From Candidatus Latescibacterota bacterium (GTDB taxonomy: Bacteria; Latescibacterota; UBA2968; UBA8231): DNA of 64,000 bases. Position 1 is the stretch's first letter. Every line of letters begins with the position of its first letter. The stretch is taken from contig CBDAOB010000005.1 of the NCBI GenBank assembly GCA_965197905.1, positions 1,568,001 through 1,632,000 on the forward strand, in the 5' to 3' direction. The position numbers and the translations under genes are program-made. A model generated the notes under the pieces. The model searched no databases. It was not told the DNA's origin and was given only the letters and a program-made list of their open reading frames with translations. Positions 2,771 to 36,309 of the stretch are shown in pieces.

Positions 2771-3840
2771 ATGGCTCGGGGAACCATCCGAACCCGCACA
2801 CGCGCAAGCACGCTGAACAGGTGCTTGCAGAGCGGCTCGCGCAGATTAGCCGGGGAGAGTTTATTGAGCCGTCCAAGATGCTTTTTCGGGAGTTCAAAGA
2901 CAAATGGCTCAAAAACTACGCGATAGGCCAAGTCAAGCCTGGGACTGTGGCAGACTACACGGGATATTTCAAAAACCATCTGCTGCCGGGCTTTGGAGAT
3001 AAACCGCTTTCCCGTATCTCCGTGGAGGACGTGCAGGCGTTCAAAGCCGCCAAACTGGCGGATGGCTACAAACCGCAAACGGTGAAGCATCTGTTGCGTT
3101 TGCTGCGGCCGATGCTCTCCCACGCGGTTGATTGGGATTATATCCGGGGGAACCCCGCTGGGAAGGTGGCAGATCCAAGAATACCGAAGGGCGAGATGGA
3201 TTTTCTGGCACCCGAGGAGGTGCGGGTTTTCCTATCGGCGGTGCCCGCGACCTGGTACGCCTTTTTTCTGATTGCGATCACCACGGGCCTGAGAGCTGGG
3301 GAGCTCCTGGCGATGCGCTGGGGGAACTTGGACTGGAACCGTAGCCGCTACTTCGTCAAGGAAACGCTCTCTCACCCCCGCTATGATTACGCTGGCGGAT
3401 TCACGGAACCCAAGACGGAAGGCTCCGCGCAATCGGTGGATCTGACACCCTTGTGCCTGGAAGCCTTGCGAGAGCACCGCAAGCAACAGGCGGAGGTGAA
3501 ACTGGCGATGGGCGCCCAATACCAAGACACGGACTTGATTTTCGCAACAAAGAAGGGGGCGCCCCTGGAGCAAAAGAATGTCATCCACCGACAATTCCAT
3601 GCCGCTCTAAGTGACGCCGGGCTGCGGCGTATCCGATTCCACGACTTGCGCCACACGACGGCATCGTTACTCATCAACCAGGGGGTCTCTCCGAAATACA
3701 TACAGCGTCAATTGAGGCACGCTTCGATCGATACTACCTTTGATCGCTACGGGCACTTGTTTCCCGAGACAAACCAAGAGGCCACTGAAAAATTGGACGC
3801 GCTGTTAATAGGGGATCGGGTAAAACGGAAGGCAGTTTGA
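2771..3840 (+). pseudogene. Phage/ICE-type tyrosine integrase with frameshifting N-terminal deletion
   Basis: Catalytic residues are intact (GLRAGE, PKT, HDLRH, LRHA, DRYGH). The RBS-supported ATG at 2771 (MARGTIRTRT) is out of frame with the body (RKHAEQVLAER... from ~2803), and the arm-binding domain is missing. Confidence 0.75.
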
Positions 3841-19688: not shown

Positions 19689-20981
19689 ATGGCACAGACC
19701 AGAGTCTTCAAGGTAGGTGATCACGAGGGTCGGGAGATCGAGCTGCGCGGATGGCTTTACAACAAGCGATCGAGCGGCAAGCTCCACTTTCTCCAGCTTC
19801 GCGATGGAAGCGGCACGATTCAGTGCGTCGTATTCAAGGGGGACGTCGAGCCTGATGTGTTCGAACTCTGTGAAGAGATTCCCAACGAATCCTCGTTGGT
19901 AGTTCGGGGATCTGTACGCAAGGATGACCGCTCGCCTCTGGGATTCGAGATCGGCGTTTCCGCTGTAGAATGCCTACAGAAGGCGGAGCCCTACCCGATC
20001 ACGCCCAAATCTCACGGCGTTGCTTTTCTGATGGACCATCGCCACCTCTGGCTGCGGTCGACGCGACCAAATGCCATTCTTCGGATACGCAGCGAGGTAG
20101 TCAAAGCATGCAGGGATTTCATGGAGGAGAGGGAATTCACTCTGGTTGATGCACCCATTTTTACTCCGGCTGCGTGCGAGGGCACGACTACGCTGTTCAG
20201 CACAGACTACTTCGGAGAAACGGCGTACCTGACGCAGAGCGGACAGCTCTATATGGAGGCAGCAGCCATGGCCTTCGGGAACGTTTACTGCCTGGGTCCG
20301 ACGTTTCGTTCGGAGAAATCGAAGACGCGCAGACACCTTACCGAATTCTGGATGATAGAGCCGGAAATGGCGTACTGCGATTTGGAGGGGGACATGGATT
20401 TGGCGGAAGAAATGGTCCGCTATGTGGTTCTCCGGGTCCTGGAACGCAGGAAGACGGAGCTCGAGATTCTCGAGCGCGACCTCTCCTCGTTGGAAAAGAT
20501 TACACAGCCATTCGCACGTATCAGCTACGACGATGCGATCGCGATTCTAGCCAACAAGGGGATACCCTTCCAGTGGGGTACGGATTTGGGTGGTGATGAT
20601 GAGACAGTCGTTTCGAAGGAATTCGGGACACCGGTGATCGTACATCGTTATCCTAGGAAGGTCAAAGCGTTCTATATGAAGGAAGACGAATCAAATCCCG
20701 ATCTGGCTCTATGCATGGATATGCTCGCTCCGGAGGGATACGGAGAGATCATCGGTGGGGGGCAAAGGGAGGACGACCTGGCAATCCTGCAACGGAAACT
20801 GGAAGATCACGATCTTCCGAAGGAAGCGTTCGAATGGTACCTCGATCTTCGCCGCTATGGTTCGGTTCCCCACGCGGGTTTCGGCATGGGCATTGAAAGG
20901 GTCGTTTCCTGGATATGTGGACTACACCACGTCAGGGAGACCATACCATTTCCGCGCACAATGCAGAGAATCTACCCATGA
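19689..20981 (+). CDS. asnS: Asparagine--tRNA ligase
   Basis: [60 protein letters not shown]. Confidence 0.96.
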
Positions 20982-23890
20982 ACGCCAACCAAGAGCGAAC
21001 AGATAACACAGCCTCGGGTTCCTACGATTTTCGGGAGATCGAGAGGCGCTGGCGCACCTATTGGTTAGAGCAGAAGACCTTCAAGACGAACGGGCCGGGG
21101 GAGGAAGGGTTTGATCAGTCCTGCCCCAAATGTTACGTGCTCGACATGTTTCCGTATACGAGCGGATCTGGTCTGCACATGGGTCACCCCAAGGGGTACA
21201 TCGCCAGCGATATCTACTGCCGCTTCAAACGCATGCAGGGTTTCAACGTTCTCCATCCCATGGGCTTCGACAGTTTCGGTCTCCCTGCCGAGCAGTACGC
21301 CATAGAGCACAACGTGCATCCGGCGGCGGCTACCGAGGAGAACATCGATATCATTCGCAGCCAGCTGCAATACCTGGGGATGGCCTACGACTGGGATAGG
21401 GAAATCGCCACCTCTCGTAGCGAGTATTACAAATGGACGCAGTGGATCTTTCTGCAGATCTACGACTCCTGGTTCGACTCGGACTGCGAGTGGATCAACG
21501 CTTCCGGTCGCCGAGTTCAGGGCCGCGCTCGTCCCGTGTCCGAGCTGATTGCGGATTTCGAGTCGGGTGCCCGGTCGCCGAGTGCGGACGACCTGGAGAC
21601 GTTGAGCGGCGACCGTTCCGTGTGGAGTGAGCTCTCAGAAGAGGAACACCATCAGGTCCTGAACAATTACCGGTTGGCTTATCAGAAGGAAGTTACGGTG
21701 AACTGGTGCCCCGGGTTGGGCACCGTTCTGGCCAACGAAGAGGTGACTAACGAGGGCAAAAGCGAGCGTGGTGATTTTCCGGTGTACAAGAAACCGCTGA
21801 GGCAGTGGATGATGCGGATTACGGAATACGCGGACCGGTTGCTGGCGGATCTCGATTCCACGTCACTCCCTGCAGGAAACGGAGAGACGTTCGAACTGAA
21901 CTGGCCTGAACCCATAAAACTCATGCAACGGAATTGGATCGGTCGCAGTGAAGGGGCAGATGTGCTGTTCGATCTGCTCGACGAGGCCGGAACAACTGTA
22001 CAGCAGCTGAACGTATTCACCACGAGGCCGGACACCCTTTTTGGTGCGACATTCATGGTGTTGGCACCCGAGCATCCATTGCTGGCGCCTGAATCCGAGC
22101 TGTTCGCCGTTCCGGAAGTATGGCCTGCAGGGACCGACGAGAGTTGGAAGGGTGACGACGGGGCGTTGGCAATCAGGGGTGCCATCGCAGCGTACATCGC
22201 CGCCGCTGCCTCCCGGTCTGCGCCGGACAGAGAGGAACGCGAGAAGACTGGGGTGTTCACAGGTATCATGGCGCGGAATCCCGTAAACGATCGGGAGATT
22301 CCGGTATTCGTAGCGGATTACGTGAGTATGGAATATGGCTCTGGGGCGATTATGGCCGTGCCGGCCCATGACGATCGAGATTTCGAGTTCGCCCGGAAAT
22401 ACGGTTTGGAGGTCGTGCAGGTCGTTTCAGACCCGAAAGCAGGATCGGAAGATTGTTTTACGGGGGAAGGCATCTCTATCAACTCGCCCGAGCTCAAGAA
22501 TGGTTCGTATGCCATCACAGGACTGCCAACAGGAGAAGCCGCAAAGACGATTGCGGCTGCGCTGGAGGCGTCCCAACGGGGCTGTCTGGCTGTGAACTAC
22601 AAACTGAGGGATTGGGTATTTTCCCGACAACGTTACTGGGGAGAGCCGTTCCCTTTGGTCCAGAGCAGCAATGGAAACGCCCTAACGACAGACATACCTG
22701 TTCTCCTGCCCGAAATGGACGACTTCCAACCCGCGATCTCCGACGATCCAGACCAGCCGGTGACACCGCCGCTGTCGCGAGCGCCGGAGGCATGGAGCAT
22801 GGTGGAGATCGATGGGGTGAACTACTGCAGGGAATTGAACGTGATGCCCCAGTGGGCTGGTTCCTGCTGGTACTTTCTACGGTTCATCGATCCGCATAAC
22901 AGCGAGGCCTTTTGTGCGAAAGATAAAGAGGCCTTGTTCATGCCGGTCGATCTCTATATCGGCGGCGCTGAACATGCGGTCCTACACCTGTTGTACACGA
23001 GGTTCTGGCACAAAGTTCTGTTCGATCTGGGGCACGTCTCAACGCCGGAGCCGTTCAAGAAACTGTTCAACCAGGGCATGATAACCGCCGATGCGTTCGT
23101 TGACGAGCGTGGCGCCTACGTGGATATCCGCGAGGTGGAAACTCGCGATGGGGAAGCGGTGCACGTCCCCTCGGGCAAGACTCTGCAACGTTTCTCGGGG
23201 AAGATGGGAAAGCGGTACAAAAACGGACTGCCTCCGGAGGAGGTCGGAGACGAATTCGGGGTCGATACGTTTCGGCTCTACGAGATGTATATGGGTCCGC
23301 TGGATGCAGGAGCGCCATGGAGCATGGAGGGCATTCGCGGCATGCAGCGCTTTCTGCAGCGGGTGTGGCGCAACTTCGTCGATCAGGACCGCAAAGCAAA
23401 GAGGGGAGGGGAACTCGCGGTCGAACTGGAAAAGAGGTTACACAAAACAATAAAAAAGGTCGCCGAAGATATAGAGGCGCTTCGATTCAATACAGCTATT
23501 GCGGCACTTATAGAGCTCAACAACGAATTGGTGCAGGCGGAGGAACACCACGACACCCTGGCGCGAACCTTTTTTCTCTTGCTGGCCCCCCTGGCTCCAC
23601 ACATCGCCGAGGAGTTGTGGGTTCTGTGGGGGTTCGGCAACGGGGACATATCATGCCAGCCCTGGCCTGTAGTGGATGCCAATCTGATAGTCGAGGAGAC
23701 TGTGGTGTTGCCGATTCAGATCAATGGCAAGGTACGAGGCAGCATCGAGGTTCCGGTTGACATCGCGGAAGCGGAACTGCGAAGAGAAATTCTGGATATG
23801 GAGAACATCCGCAAACACATTCCCGATCCATCGCTGGTGGCACGTTTTATACTGGTGCCGAAGCGCATCGTCAATATTGTGGTCAAATAA
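20978..23890 (+). CDS. leuS: Leucine--tRNA ligase
   Basis: [56 protein letters not shown] overlaps the asnS stop. Confidence 0.97.
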
Positions 23891-23947: not shown

Positions 23948-23975
23948 GCAGCGTATAATGTATAATATGTTACTT
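23948..23975 (+). other. dif-like Xer recombination site
   Basis: GCAGCGTATAA-TGTATA-ATATGTTACTT; 22/28 identical to E. coli dif GGTGCGCATAA-TGTATA-TTATGTTAAAT. Intergenic, at the gene-strand switch. Confidence 0.7.
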
Positions 23976-23996
23976 AGATGCCCCAAAAGCTTGTAT

Positions 23997-24935
23997 TCAG
24001 GAGATGTGAATGTAATCTGAAGCATTGTCTGTCAGCTTTTCCCGGTTTTCGTAATAACGCATGGTTGTCTTGAGATCCTTGTGGCGCAGATGTGCTTGAA
24101 CCTGTTGTGGTTTGGCTCCGCCCTCAATCGCCAGCGTGCAGCAGGTGTGTCGGAACATGTGGGCGGTTACGACGCGAGACAAACCGGCCCGGTTGGCGTA
24201 TTTCTTGACGATGAGATTGATCGACTGATCGCTGAGCGGCTTTCCGTGGGACTGATTCCGCGAAAGGCTGATAAACGCCTTCAGCTTCGCCTCGTACCCG
24301 CGGGCCAAGAGTGCCTGTCTGTAGAGGCTAAGGTAATGGGAAACAACGGGTTGTATCTTGATATCCTGGGGAACCCCGCTTTTAGTCTCGGGCAACTTCA
24401 AAACCGTAAATGCACCCTCCTTGGAGAGATCTTCCCATGAGATATTAGCCGCTTCCGAGCGGCGCAATCCGCCATAGGTGAGCAAATGCAGCAAGGCTTC
24501 GTCGCGGCTGCGAACCAGATCATCCTGCTCCTCTCGGACCGCGTCGAGTATGCTCTTGATAGCTTTGTTCGATATCGCTTTTCCGGTCAGATTGTCCTCC
24601 ACCCGGTAACCCCTTACGAGGGTTGCGTCGGCCGGATTATTCTCCACAAGTCCTGCCGCTAACAGCATGCGGAAGAAGGCTTTAAGGCTCGAAAGCTTGC
24701 GGTTGATCGTGGTTCGCTTGTATCCAGATTCAGCCAGCTCGTTGCGAAACGCGATGATGTCGTGGAAGGCAATCTGACGGATTTCCGTCATTGTGGCGTT
24801 TTCGTTGCCGAAGAAGTGGACGAGGTCTCGTTTATAGGCTCGACGGGTGCGCTCGGACAGTTGGCCGGCGAGGAACTGCTGCAGCGGTGCCTCGGCAACG
24901 GGCGCCAGAACGGACTGGGTTGTTAGCTGGGTCAA
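23997..24935 (-). CDS. Tyrosine recombinase (Xer-like/resolvase, no arm-binding domain)
   Basis: SERTRRAYKRDL, TINRKLSSLKAFF, GGLRRSE, TKSG, AHMFRHT, LRHKDLKTTMRY: full R-K-H-R-H-Y set. Confidence 0.92.
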   Translation of the reverse strand: MTQLTTQSVLAPVAEAPLQQFLAGQLSERTRRAYKRDLVHFFGNENATMTEIRQIAFHDIIAFRNELAESGYKRTTINRKLSSLKAFFRMLLAAGLVENNPADATLVRGYRVEDNLTGKAISNKAIKSILDAVREEQDDLVRSRDEALLHLLTYGGLRRSEAANISWEDLSKEGAFTVLKLPETKSGVPQDIKIQPVVSHYLSLYRQALLARGYEAKLKAFISLSRNQSHGKPLSDQSINLIVKKYANRAGLSRVVTAHMFRHTCCTLAIEGGAKPQQVQAHLRHKDLKTTMRYYENREKLTDNASDYIHIS

Positions 24936-24945
24936 TGTTTTTACA

Positions 24946-25659
24946 GAGCTTGGGTCAAATGGTGTGTAAACGACTCAGGCGGCAATCTTCTTCCTTTGCG
25001 CGATGTGTGATCCATTTTCTTTTGACGTAGATCCGGTCTGCCCAGGCGTACACCAGCTCGCGGTCATCCAGCCGTCGGCTGCGCCAAGCGTGGTATTCGA
25101 CGATCCACTTATCCCGCAAACGCGCGATTGAGGACGGCGACAGCGGCGCTCCCGCTCCCAGCAGGCCGCGCAGCGCCAGCTCGAAGTCGCCTTGGGACAG
25201 ACCGTGCAGATACAGTTCCGGCAACAGCTGACCCACCTCCTTCGTACGCCGCGCAAACAGCGGCAGAATGGCGCTCTCGAAGCGCTCTTCCAGACCTCGC
25301 ACGCGTGGACGTTTTACCTCGATCGTGCCCGAGGTACAGGACAGTCGCCGCCGCTTCCCGTAGCCATTTCGATAGCCGCCGGGTGCGTCCAACGGGGCCT
25401 GACGCTGGTAGCGCGACCGCCCCAGCACCTGCGTCACTTCTTCATCCAAAACCGACTGCATCAAAGACTGAATCTGCGACCGCGTCCACGCTTCCAACGT
25501 TTCGAACGTGGGCATGGACATTTCCGCGGTGCTCAGCTTAGGTTGTGGCATGGCGATTCTCCTCTTCCTGCCGGGACAGCCCCGGCGCGTGTAATGTCTA
25601 ATTACAAAGGAAGGGTCGGATCGCCTTCTGTGTATTTCCACACCTTTTGATTATAGCTC
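24946..25659 (-). mobile_element. Internally deleted IS256-family element (714 bp)
   Basis: TIRs GAGCTTGGGTCAAATGGTGTGTAAA / GAGCTATAATCAAAAGGTGTGGAAA; 8-bp TSD TTTTTACA at 24938-24945 and 25660-25667. The transposase (GYRNGY, ELYLHGLSQGDF) is truncated just after the first-Asp region (YAWADRIYVK). Confidence 0.9.
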
Positions 25660-25780
25660 TTTTTACATTTTACAAGTGTTACAAAGGGGCAGGATTGAGC
25701 GCGGCGAGTATATTCTGCTAGGGAATGGTAAATATAAGGACGCGCGGTCAGATTGTCACTTCAACATCCTTATAGCTCCA

Positions 25781-25810
25781 AACTAACGATAACGGGTATT
25801 ATCGTTAGTT
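25781..25810. other. Perfect palindromic tyrosine-recombinase crossover site (12-6-12)
   Basis: AACTAACGATAA-CGGGTA-TTATCGTTAGTT: dif/loxP-like geometry with ATAA-N6-TTAT core, upstream of the recombinase gene. Confidence 0.75.
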
Positions 25811-25852: not shown

Positions 25853-27646
25853 TCAGGTGCGCTCAAAATGTCGGTCCAGCTCGGTCAGCGGAATCCGCAA
25901 GATGATCGGTCGTCCGTGTGGGCAGACGTTTGGCTTTCTGGTATTGAGAAGCCGCTGCACCAGAACCCGCATTTCCGACTCCGAGAGCTTCTCGCCCGCT
26001 CTGATCGAGGTATGACATGCGTATGAGGCTGCCACCGCTTCTTTAAGAGTGTCTCGGATCTCCTTTTCCTCAAGGATTTCCGATACGATCCGGTGAAACA
26101 AAACGCCGTCATCCCAGTTGTTCAGGTTGGCAGGTATGGAATCAACTATGACGCTGTTGGGCCCAAAATCGCGGATACCGAAACCGAGCTTTGTCAGCAG
26201 TTTACGGCTTTCGCGAATCGCTTCCATCTCCGTGTGATCTCCGCCGACGGTGAGTGGAAACAACAGCTGCTGGGAGGTGACGTTCTCGGCCTCGAAAGAG
26301 TCTATGGCTTCCTCGTAGCGGATGCGTTCGTGCGCCACGTGTTGATCGACGATCATAAGTCCGTCGCTCGACGGAGCCATGATGTATTTTCGATGGACTT
26401 GCCAGATCGGGCTGTCGTCAGAAAGTCCATCTCTGCCCGGCGAAACAACCCTCTCGAGACCGGTATGCTCCTCTACTACACCTTTTGACTGTGGCACTTG
26501 CAATTGGAGTTGTCCCGGGTCTTCGTCGGTACCTCGAGTTTTGAATCGAACGACAGACAAATCGGTGAGTTCGGTACCTCCCTCTCCGCGGTAGAGACCG
26601 GTGGGACTCGACTCTGTCACTCGGTCCGCCAACGCAACCGCGCGACCGGGAGCGCCTTCCCTGCCCAGAGTATCCATCAACGCGCTGTGAACAGCCGCTT
26701 CCAATCGTGAGCCAATCTCCCGTTCGTTCGAAATTCTGATCTCTCTCTTGCTTGGATGCACGTTCATGTCGACGGAACGGGGTTGAACCGTCAGCCAAAC
26801 CAAAAATGAGGGATGCGAGTCTCTCGGCTGCAAACCGGCGTAGGCGCGGTAGACGGCCTGGCTCAGGGTCCGTGAAAAGACAGGTCGCCCCCCGACGATG
26901 ACGAATTGCTTGGCTTTGGAGCGCCCACATCTGTCTGGCCTGCTCAGATATCCCTCGATGCGAATCTCCTGGCCTTCGTCAGATACTCCGATCAGGTCGT
27001 TCGCAGATAACAACACTCCCCCGCGGGCTGCCGGGGTCCCTGGGTGCATCTCGACAATCGTTCGCTCGCCGTGGGAAAGAGTGAAACCGATCTGCGGACA
27101 GGCGGCACCAAGTTGCGATATAACCTGGGTAATATGGCGCATTTCAGTATCGACGCGGCGCAAAAATTTTCGTCTGGCCGGTGTGTTGAAAAATAGGTTG
27201 CGCACGTGTACGGTTGTACCGCGCGATCTGCCGATCGATTCAAGGGTCCGCCGGATCCCCCCTTCTATGACGAGGCGGGTGCCCGCAGCATCGTCACCGA
27301 AGCGGGATTCGATCGTCAATCTCGAGACAGCTGCGACGCTGGCGAGAGCCTCGCCGCGAAACCCCAAGGTTGCAATGTCAGAAAGATCAGCTGCAGATCT
27401 CAGTTTGCTGGTAGCGTGCCGCGCGACCGAGAGTTTGACGTCTTCAAGCTTCATGCCACTTCCGTCGTCCGTGACATGTATGGCATGTCGGCCGCCCTCC
27501 ACGACGTTTACGACGATGGTGCGTGCGCCAGCGTCGACGGAGTTTTCAATCAGTTCCTTTACCACCGAAGCGGGACGTTCGATCACCTCTCCCGCGGCGA
27601 TCTTTGAAACCATGCTGTCCGATAACACTTGAATCGTTGGGGCCAT
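25853..27646 (-). CDS. mutL: DNA mismatch repair endonuclease MutL
   Basis: KIAAGEVIERPASVVKELIENSVDAGA, GFRGEALAS, DQHVAHERIRYE, CPHGRP. Confidence 0.97.
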   Translation of the reverse strand: MAPTIQVLSDSMVSKIAAGEVIERPASVVKELIENSVDAGARTIVVNVVEGGRHAIHVTDDGSGMKLEDVKLSVARHATSKLRSAADLSDIATLGFRGEALASVAAVSRLTIESRFGDDAAGTRLVIEGGIRRTLESIGRSRGTTVHVRNLFFNTPARRKFLRRVDTEMRHITQVISQLGAACPQIGFTLSHGERTIVEMHPGTPAARGGVLLSANDLIGVSDEGQEIRIEGYLSRPDRCGRSKAKQFVIVGGRPVFSRTLSQAVYRAYAGLQPRDSHPSFLVWLTVQPRSVDMNVHPSKREIRISNEREIGSRLEAAVHSALMDTLGREGAPGRAVALADRVTESSPTGLYRGEGGTELTDLSVVRFKTRGTDEDPGQLQLQVPQSKGVVEEHTGLERVVSPGRDGLSDDSPIWQVHRKYIMAPSSDGLMIVDQHVAHERIRYEEAIDSFEAENVTSQQLLFPLTVGGDHTEMEAIRESRKLLTKLGFGIRDFGPNSVIVDSIPANLNNWDDGVLFHRIVSEILEEKEIRDTLKEAVAASYACHTSIRAGEKLSESEMRVLVQRLLNTRKPNVCPHGRPIILRIPLTELDRHFERT

Positions 27647-28996: not shown

Positions 28997-30013
28997 TCAC
29001 TGCCAACGCTCGAGAACGTCGTCGCGTATTTCCCTTCTAAGAAGCGGTTCGATCCTGGTTTGCGCCGCCAAGCGAATGGCAGGATCCCGTTCGTCAAACG
29101 AGAGCTGCTCCAATAGATTACGGTCGGATCGCGGATGATTGGCGACCGCCACGACCACTTCTACCTGATTGTCCCCCGATAATTGCCGCAACGTCTTTAG
29201 CGAGGTTTGTGGATGTTCCGCTACAGCCTGGCGTACCGTCGGATCGGCATCCTCGGCAAGTTTTTCCAGGATCCGCAGCGGGGTATTGATGTTCATGGCA
29301 ACAGCATGTCTCAGGGAGATGTCCCGTTCGGTGCTGGCACTGTCCAGGGAGGCCACGGGTGTGTTCCGATGTTTCAACGCGCTCAGCTTCACGGTCACCA
29401 CCGAGTCTGCCGCGAGCACGGCCAGCGAGCGTTGGGTCGCATAGATATTCTTGGTCAGCTTCTGTCGCACCACCGGATCCGGATCAAGGGCCAGGAAATC
29501 GAAAACACCCTCGGGTATCAGCTCGTTGGAGGCCAGTGCTAGGCGGACCAGGGGCTGGCTGTCACGTGCCAGCCGCAATGCCAGCTTTTCAATCGATTCA
29601 CGCAGCTCCTTTGGTGCCAGGGGTTTTCTTGTGAGGTTCAAGGCAACGCCGCTGCGAACGAAAGGGACCGGGTCGGCCGAAAGAACCCAAAGCACGCCGA
29701 GGGGCGTATGCCGGTTCGTAGCGACGTAGAACCTTACTCCTCCATCCTCGTCGTCGGCCAGCAATCCGAGCTCAGCGCCATTGGTACTCGTATTCGCCCT
29801 GAGCTTCTGCTTATTGTCCACCTGAGATTCGGTGTACAGCAGCTGTCTGACCTTCCAGCGGCCAAGCCGGCGCAGACGATCCCTGATCTTCTCTTCCTGT
29901 TCTGGCTCGTCCCGAGGTTTCGCCTTTTCCTGCGCCAACGCGGATTCCGCTGCGCCGAGGAGCACTCCAACCGACAGCACCGTCAGTATTCTCAGAAAAA
30001 TAGACATTTGCAT
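28997..30013 (-). CDS. Secreted HEAT/LRV-repeat protein
   Basis: Signal peptide (…SALA-QE) and repeats of the type VRQAVAEHPQTSLKTLRQLSGD. Confidence 0.75.
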   Translation of the reverse strand: MQMSIFLRILTVLSVGVLLGAAESALAQEKAKPRDEPEQEEKIRDRLRRLGRWKVRQLLYTESQVDNKQKLRANTSTNGAELGLLADDEDGGVRFYVATNRHTPLGVLWVLSADPVPFVRSGVALNLTRKPLAPKELRESIEKLALRLARDSQPLVRLALASNELIPEGVFDFLALDPDPVVRQKLTKNIYATQRSLAVLAADSVVTVKLSALKHRNTPVASLDSASTERDISLRHAVAMNINTPLRILEKLAEDADPTVRQAVAEHPQTSLKTLRQLSGDNQVEVVVAVANHPRSDRNLLEQLSFDERDPAIRLAAQTRIEPLLRREIRDDVLERWQ

Positions 30014-30042
30014 AGATATACCTGTCTCACGAGGCGAAGACA

Positions 30043-30059
30043 TGGCAAAATACATGCCA
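30043..30059 (-). promoter_or_regulatory. sigma-54 (-24/-12) promoter
   Basis: TGGCAT-GTATT-TTGCC about 30 bp upstream of the ATG at 30013. Confidence 0.55.
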
Positions 30060-36152: not shown

Positions 36153-36309
36153 CTTGTTTGGTGGTGATTTGGGAGTCTAAGTGTAATGATAGGTGAGGGT
36201 TGCAGGAGTGTCAATTTGTTGGTGTGTTACATATTGATCATTATGCGACATTTTCGCATAGTCAAACCTTCGACAAAACCACCTTTTGACAGTCAACTGT
36301 ATCAATCGG

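Follow-up and report, generated by a model that had tools for sequence, protein, structure and literature searches.

A predicted single-recombinase system for chromosome dimer resolution at the replication terminus of a family of Candidatus Latescibacterota

The stretch of DNA described here (64,000 nucleotides, forward-strand positions 1,568,001 to 1,632,000 of contig CBDAOB010000005.1, assembly GCA_965197905.1; hereafter the window) is from a member of Candidatus Latescibacterota (lineage UBA2968; UBA8231). It holds a gene for a tyrosine recombinase, a perfectly palindromic site upstream of the gene and a dif-like site 21 bp beyond its stop codon (Table 1). A first-pass annotation, made from the letters of the window, had placed these features at the terminus of replication and had offered two explanations, a new single-recombinase system replacing a decaying XerCD-dif or a resolvase cassette parked beside dif. 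Here we present the features of the locus, their distribution in related genomes and an interpretation, in which the recombinase is a predicted single-subunit resolvase of chromosome dimers.

Table 1. Coordinates of the recombinase locus and associated features in the window
Feature	Position	Strand	Remarks
leuS	20915..23890	+	Constant left-hand neighbour of the slot; in 41/55 loci the first marker on the downstream side of the recombinase
dif-like site GCAGCGTATAA-TGTATA-ATATGTTACTT	23948..23975	+	XerC arm left, XerD arm right toward the palindrome; inner site on the left side of the array
Tyrosine recombinase gene, 312 aa, TTG start	23997..24935	-	Predicted single-subunit chromosome dimer resolvase
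IS256-family remnant, internally deleted, 714 bp, terminal inverted repeats	24946..25659	-	Outside the system
Promoter-like GTGACA-17-TATATT of the recombinase gene	25731..25759	-	Putative, from sequence
Palindrome AACTAACGATAA-CGGGTA-TTATCGTTAGTT, perfect 12-6-12	25781..25810	.	Predicted crossover site, centre of the oriented array
mutL	25853..27646	-	Fixed right neighbour; in one clade inverts along with palindrome and recombinase
Second dif-like site ATGTCGCATAA-TGATCA-ATATGTAACAC	36224..36251	-	Inverted, XerD arm toward the palindrome; same place in genome G002

The recombinase consists of two Pfam domains, the SAM-like N-domain and Phage_integrase; an arm domain is absent. The active-site residues R158, K185, H259, R262, H285 and Y294/Y295 are all present and unchanged across 27 aligned homologues, and the catalytic motifs are intact in 44 of 44 orthologues. 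With an R-K-H-R-H/W-Y active site, core-binding and catalytic domains and no arm domain, the protein is a simple tyrosine recombinase, and the two domains and six catalytic residues confirm the intact enzyme first annotated. The annotation had suggested a phylogenetic placement; profile scores, homology and a tree put the protein outside XerC/XerD, XerS, XerA and XerH. It scored 136 and 133 bits with the XerC and XerD models (TIGR02224/TIGR02225, cut-offs 335 and 330), 75.6 bits with the XerS model NF003462 (cut-off 267) and 111.5 bits with the archaeal XerA model NF040815 (cut-off 220). The match to XerH (39.5 bits, E 3e-9) covered the catalytic half only and ranked below those to XerD and XerA, and the protein is therefore not assigned as a XerH orthologue. 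Cre was not among its PDB matches. In a quick tree the family branched apart from XerC/XerD, among unnamed metagenome proteins. An AlphaFold model (mean predicted local distance difference test score 73.7, low at the C-terminus) was not used as support.

The IS256-family remnant (IS, insertion sequence) is bounded by an 8-bp target duplication, TTTTTACA, at 24938-24945 and 25660-25667. Longer copies are present elsewhere in the genome, and contigs from two of four runs join across the remnant. It is recent and strain-specific and is not part of the resolvase system. A motif similar to the promoter-like one was seen by eye upstream of most orthologues.

The palindrome scored 44 bits with a matrix built from the family sites, the window site among them; in 1.5 Mb of shuffled genome no score exceeded 8.4 bits. 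Once the IS is removed, it lies 123 bp from the start codon, in agreement with the perfect site at about 125 bp of the first description. Regarding the 55 orthologous loci, a palindrome of at least 20 bits was found in 51; the four misses comprise two loci without upstream DNA, one degenerate site and one siteless locus. In genomes lacking the recombinase gene it was not found (5/5). Its spacer is asymmetric and conserved (TGCCTG in 30/51, in either direction). Between loci, palindrome and promoter-like motif lie at distances that differ by hundreds of bases, as would suit a crossover site more than an operator, and an autoregulatory operator was rejected for this reason. We infer that the recombinase binds the palindrome. 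Recombinases of plasmids with 30% identity lend independent support to this predicted pairing of site type with enzyme type, as a nearly identical or related palindrome lies upstream in five of the seven loci examined.

Palindromes and related sites were also recorded outside the terminus. Three more full palindromes with different spacers (C4:34508, C4:2146858 and C5:1382520, where C4 and C5 are contigs of this genome) sit in DNA that appears to be mobile, with repeat arrays and phage-like genes nearby. Seven phage contigs (L298-L304, 28-49% G+C) hold exact palindrome arms, in several cases between small and large terminase-like genes; no recombinase was found within 3 kb, and these contigs were not used as support. 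At locus L099, two direct-repeat half-palindrome sites with the terminus spacer (positions 2661 and 5611) flank mutL and are possible attL/attR-like traces of a palindrome-using element. This genome further contains about 30 hybrid 12-6-12 sites (e.g., the cluster C4:922096-1005064, C5:668070 and C5:1566515), in which one palindrome arm and one XerC-like arm are followed by TATACT. They terminate a dispersed repeat that reaches 450 bp, usually ahead of accessory genes. Genome G002 has 18 such sites, two of them with the terminus spacer; four direct-repeat hybrid sites at G002:C1:5655215-5664845 (L228:2350, 4345, 6817) have alternating spacers, two of which equal the terminus spacer. Among five genomes tested, hybrid sites were numerous in this genus only (none in G090, G019 and G032, one weak site in G017). 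They could be a cassette or mobile system that uses the new recombinase together with XerC. A Fur box was rejected for these sites, since its spacing differs.

The location at the terminus was corroborated by the cumulative guanine-cytosine (GC) skew of the 2.68-Mb contig C5, which peaks at window position 24,982. The skew is strong around the terminus on this contig and weak on the other four (weak and irregular on C2-C4). Regarding relatives assembled as single contigs, the slot between leuS and mutL lies 171-179 degrees from dnaA in five of five (including G017 and G019, which are treated below), and the same range holds for the recombinase in the three that have the gene; in those three the skew is positive on the left side at about 100 kb and negative on the right side at about 80 kb. 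Orthologous loci thus mostly keep the palindrome, and the terminal position is kept in these single-contig relatives, points that the annotation had proposed to check.

A first search yielded orthologues at 61-91% identity in 18 of 24 genomes of the same family and in none of 16 others. With a profile, the recombinase was found in 60 of the 76 family genomes and in 15 of the 18 genera, in single copy (two split matches were in fragmented assemblies), and in none of 77 genomes from 12 other Latescibacterota families. The named sources of homologues were mostly Candidatus Latescibacterota, and in viral contigs no relative of the protein was found. In the family genomes the gene sits between leuS and mutL. 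Recombinase distances among 44 orthologues track those of MutL (Spearman 0.75) and are smaller on average (0.27 vs 0.42), so that the recombinase evolves more slowly than MutL. The closest relatives outside the family whose context was examined (47% identity) lie in contigs judged phage-like. From the tree placement, these phage-like contexts and the MutL-tracking distances, the gene is probably of mobile origin, yet has passed down with the chromosome from the origin of the family onwards. As a separate observation, an abundant phage-like element in marine metagenome contigs (L262-L297, P0124 family) encodes the 47% relative without the palindrome.

The same slot has been occupied by another recombinase. 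Thirty family genomes consist of 13 contigs or fewer; 26 of them have an orthologue, and the other four (G017, G062, G063 and G019) have a Cre-like gene between leuS and mutL. The best PDB match of this replacement is Cre (E 2e-19), and tryptophan stands at the H/W position in all four genes. A different symmetric site with a 6-bp spacer lies upstream, dif-like sites lie around, and the angular distance of the slot from dnaA is 172 degrees in G017 and 176 degrees in G019. Cre-like relatives are scattered as mobile copies in 10 of the 76 genomes. The four terminus copies do not form one clade (approximately unbiased test, p 1.3e-4, for a group defined by position and tested after the tree was seen), and the slot was therefore refilled at least twice. 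The XerC tyrosine is absent in all four genomes. A further 12 draft genomes have neither gene; in most of these the assembly is missing the leuS or mutL end or is broken at it. A XerD-only palindrome was considered for one site in G017 and rejected, because it is an ordinary inward site given the Cre-like gene.

The first-pass annotation had named canonical xerCD plus a better dif elsewhere among the evidence that would refute a new system. The xerC and xerD genes were indeed found (xerD at C4:255930, above the TIGR02225 cut-off, and xerC at C4:1060733), but catalytic residues are missing: in XerD serine replaces the catalytic lysine, and neither the lysine nor the first histidine is found in XerC. 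Both genes are retained as open reading frames in nearly all family genomes. Scoring covered 35 of the 76 family genomes, whole or in part, and the lysine calls depend on the alignment of a hairpin with insertions and deletions. All six R-K-H-R-H-Y residues were present in both proteins in one of 26 family pairs, compared with 11 of 11 outgroup pairs; five further family pairs added no complete one (1/31 genomes). The catalytic tyrosine is missing in 17 of 32 family XerC and kept in 33 of 34 XerD, and the catalytic lysine is missing in 26 of 34 XerD. The losses differ in kind from genus to genus. FtsK with a gamma domain and SMC are present.

Compared by eye, the dif-like site beside the recombinase gene shares 22/28 positions with E. 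coli dif as given in PMC3025954, and its identity and distance from the stop codon are as first reported. Its three changes in the XerD arm had been read as decay; the A at the first position of that arm is, however, a common family variant (30/82 sites). Of the proposed replacement of a decaying XerCD-dif, the replacement is thus supported and the decay of dif is not, erosion being found in the active sites of XerC and XerD while the dif-like sites have multiplied. An equivalent site lies downstream of the recombinase in most relatives.

Two dif-like sites, one on each strand, make up the array of this genome (Table 1). A genome-wide pattern search of 26 genomes found five or six within about 45 kb in 16 of them, most six-site genomes coming from one genus. 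Plus-strand sites lie to the left of the palindrome and minus-strand sites to the right, so that the XerD arm points inward at 107 of 107 sites within 40 kb (22 genomes), or at 108 of 110 with G048, G017 and G019 added (one inward, two outward); the corresponding count among the 51 palindrome loci, from overlapping data, is 102 of 104. For G015 the strict pattern was unmatched and a looser one found an inward pair. The spacers are A+T-rich and variable, and every site retains its two arms and a spacing of exactly 6 bp. Outward sites next to the recombinase gene were noted at L163:9606-9756 (G019) and at L050, L056, L065 and L098. Three outgroup genomes have a single dif each within 20 kb, two of them beside leuS.

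In 10 of the 51 loci the inner dif-like pair bounds an inversion of the block of mutL, palindrome and recombinase gene, and in G011 palindrome and recombinase are inverted without mutL; identical spacers occur in 5 of 26 inner pairs. Contigs from four runs contained no strand-changing joint, although such data cannot show the absence of inversion. An integrative mobile element that exploits Xer (IMEX) was rejected, as the flanking sites are inverted, not direct attL/attR hybrids, and no cargo is present; simple attL/attR integration had already been dismissed in the annotation. FtsK orienting polar sequences of the E. coli type (270/405 on the C5 leading strand) were not used as support, because the consensus is that of E. 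coli and may not be the host's.

Two properties of a single-recombinase system were found at this locus: the site lies at the GC-skew terminus, across the chromosome from the origin, and it is a single, conserved dyad of about 30 bp in an intergenic region, co-inherited with one recombinase. From these sequence features, it is likely that the recombinase resolves chromosome dimers at the palindrome. We further consider it probable, at a lesser degree of confidence, that the system displaced XerCD catalysis and that XerC and XerD persist as polar markers that do not cut. Of the two explanations originally offered, the first is supported by the distribution and position of the gene, by the conservation of its site and by the replacement with a Cre-like recombinase.

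In the proposed sequence of events, an ancestor would have captured a resolvase of phage or plasmid type, with its site, at dif. Four subunits on two sister palindromes would exchange strands across the 6-bp spacer in the manner of Cre/loxP; XerCD catalysis would then have become dispensable and decayed separately in many lineages, while XerC and XerD would have been retained for binding. XerC without its tyrosine could not finish canonical dif recombination, yet FtsK with the gamma domain is present; the one intact simple recombinase at the terminus, with its dyad site, would be the obvious substitute.

As to the array, an FtsK gate is conceivable, with a little under an even chance in our estimate: the outer face of XerD, turned inward, would keep FtsK inside the terminus and hold the sister palindromes in simple synapse. 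In E. coli, Cre-loxP can substitute for XerCD-dif but needs directed FtsK translocation, by which tangled products are avoided (PMC2680272). XerD alone stops FtsK about five-fold better from its outer face, and XerC/XerD K172Q, described as cleavage-defective on the basis of unpublished data, still stops FtsK (PMC2800217). The gate is favoured because Cre-type resolution needs directed FtsK and the face of XerD that stops it points inward here. Other candidate roles of the array would be SMC unloading and a replication-fork trap. It is possible, if on balance slightly doubtful, that XerCD was turned into a one-way fence, in which disarmed XerC and XerD on a mirror array of up to six sites would confine FtsK, forks or SMC to a plug-in slot where any self-sufficient resolvase with its own site cuts, positioning being thereby split from catalysis.

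Several observations weigh against this interpretation. One genus contributes 31 genomes and thereby inflates the counts, and related genomes are not independent. Among the closest outside relatives the palindrome was found in 0 of 36 loci, and three drafts of genus g15 with 1.5 kb of flank by leuS or mutL show neither recombinase there. In the genome described here the IS parts the recombinase gene from its promoter-like motif. The innermost dif-like site faces outward in several loci of the genus g18 type. The inversions at the inner pair indicate that occasional cutting by XerCD probably persists, at least in the clade with a complete XerC, and where XerC is complete they could reflect residual XerC-driven exchange. 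The XerC/XerD pair of G005 is complete and that of G011 nearly so, and changes from K to R may preserve activity. Finally, full E. coli XerCD-dif stops FtsK from both sides (79% and 83%), for which a one-way gate must account.

Those inversions bear also on the possibility that XerCD still resolves dimers at the dif-like sites by residual catalysis, the recombinase and palindrome being a backup or an aid to decatenation. The open frames of xerC and xerD, the XerD score above its cut-off in this genome and the spacers, shared by sister copies of any site and identical within some inner pairs, would suit such a role. Dimer resolution requires both strand exchanges, though, and both proteins lack the lysine here; given the family-wide losses in XerC (tyrosine) and XerD (lysine) and the greater conservation of the new recombinase, we regard this as improbable. 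Somewhat less improbable, but still unlikely, is that the resolvase is as proposed and that the array serves XerD, with or without XerC, to unload SMC or trap forks without an FtsK gate. This explanation shares the resolvase claim, and the likelihood given to it covers the cases in which the FtsK part is wrong. Nested opposite arrays are the geometry of Ter/Tus, which the array resembles; an SMC gene is present, and XerD has kept its tyrosine better than XerC (33/34 vs 15/32). In the terminus region of B. subtilis, site-bound XerD unloads SMC (PMC10945525, PMC12322038). Binding by XerD alone would not, however, require the two arms and exact spacing that are kept everywhere; polar SMC unloading is not described in the accessible parts of the literature examined, and a Xer fork barrier was not found in the literature searched.

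A parked or selfish resolvase cassette between inverted dif sites, resembling a pdif module and without chromosome function, would be in keeping with the nearest relatives on plasmids and phage-like contigs, with an arrangement in which inverted Xer sites enclose a gene and with the tolerated IS insertion. This second explanation of the annotation is weakened by the vertical inheritance of the gene and its conservation above that of MutL, and it is very improbable in view of the single copy at one position, the active site intact in all 44 orthologues, the lack of cargo and of relatives in viral contigs, and the independent refilling of the slot by another resolvase. The recombinase might also be an invertase or cassette integrase that flips the mutL block or shuffles genes via the dispersed hybrid sites, of which this genome and G002 have many, including the two with the terminus spacer. 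The breakpoints of the inversions lie at dif-like sites and not at the single-copy palindrome, and hybrid sites are numerous in one genus whereas the recombinase is family-wide; such a function therefore appears to be just as remote.

The system shares with XerS/difSL of streptococci and lactococci and with XerH/difH of Helicobacter and Campylobacter the use of one recombinase, an adjacent site, the terminus and a probable origin from a mobile element (PMC1914069, PMC5357621). It differs in the protein family, in the perfect arms of the window site and in the retention of disarmed XerC and XerD on their own oriented sites; the accessible text of the XerS paper describes only a XerD-like protein, which does not bind difSL (PMC1914069). 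XerL/dif of the Legionellales likewise combines a single recombinase with a dif that lies at the skew maximum and whose inverted arms, 10-12 bp long, are perfect, and with mimicry by mobile elements (PMC9765430). According to the accessible part of its description, XerL has about 400 residues with the catalytic Y387, is encoded more than 400 kb from dif, and occurs in an order without XerC/XerD (PMC9765430). By these descriptions, the window protein differs from XerL (Lpg1867) in length (312 vs about 400 residues) and gene position.

By analogy, the system would resemble Cre/loxP in the E. coli dif::loxP strain, in which a homotetramer on a symmetric site replaces XerCD-dif and needs FtsK directionality. 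The window protein is not Cre-like, and it is the four Cre-related replacement genes that are the natural counterpart of that experiment. Plasmid recombinases of Pseudomonas and other proteobacteria (e.g., WP_079329438.1, WP_135848104.1 and WP_021035849.1), which have 30% identity and, in the five of seven loci noted above, a palindrome of the GATAA-N6-TTATC type upstream, are similar in type; they often adjoin toxin-antitoxin pairs. Unlike the window system, they are mobile and sporadic and form a separate tree branch; an experimental description of them was not found in the literature, StbA being a different resolvase. Canonical XerCD/dif, pdif modules and XerD of B. subtilis provide parallels in two-arm sites of 11-6-11, in inverted pairs around a gene and in a terminus role apart from recombination. 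In contrast to canonical XerCD/dif, up to six chromosomal sites are mirror-ordered around a foreign site, between essential genes, and XerC and XerD are eroded; outgroup families have one dif and intact XerC/XerD. Neither a mirror array of several dif sites nor disarmed XerCD beside a third recombinase nor Latescibacterota Xer was found in the literature searched, which covered few subscription journals. The sequence of the palindrome arm turned up in four apparently unrelated papers. Resolvases of this type are known; no account of one alongside disarmed XerCD and a mirror array, or of repeated swapping of the resolvase, was found in the searchable literature.

Some further features of the surroundings were noted. 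In the closest relative, leuS has a partial duplicated 3' end beside the recombinase gene (L046:7002-10598). An integrase of the arm-domain type (window positions 2821-3840) ends at the start of miaA and apparently marks the edge of an integrated element, and a leucine-rich-repeat-variant/HEAT protein (28997-30055) is encoded directly downstream of hprK.

For the family, the findings add a new candidate recombinase-site pair, with a site supported family-wide, and Cre relatives that have seemingly become chromosome resolvases. They outline a plausible route for the origin of single-recombinase Xer systems in which the old enzymes are still present: a mobile resolvase is captured at dif, XerCD catalysis is lost several times over and the resolvase is swapped more than once. 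They also point to a natural separation of the catalytic from the structural roles of XerCD, by which the non-recombining role of XerD at the terminus becomes testable.

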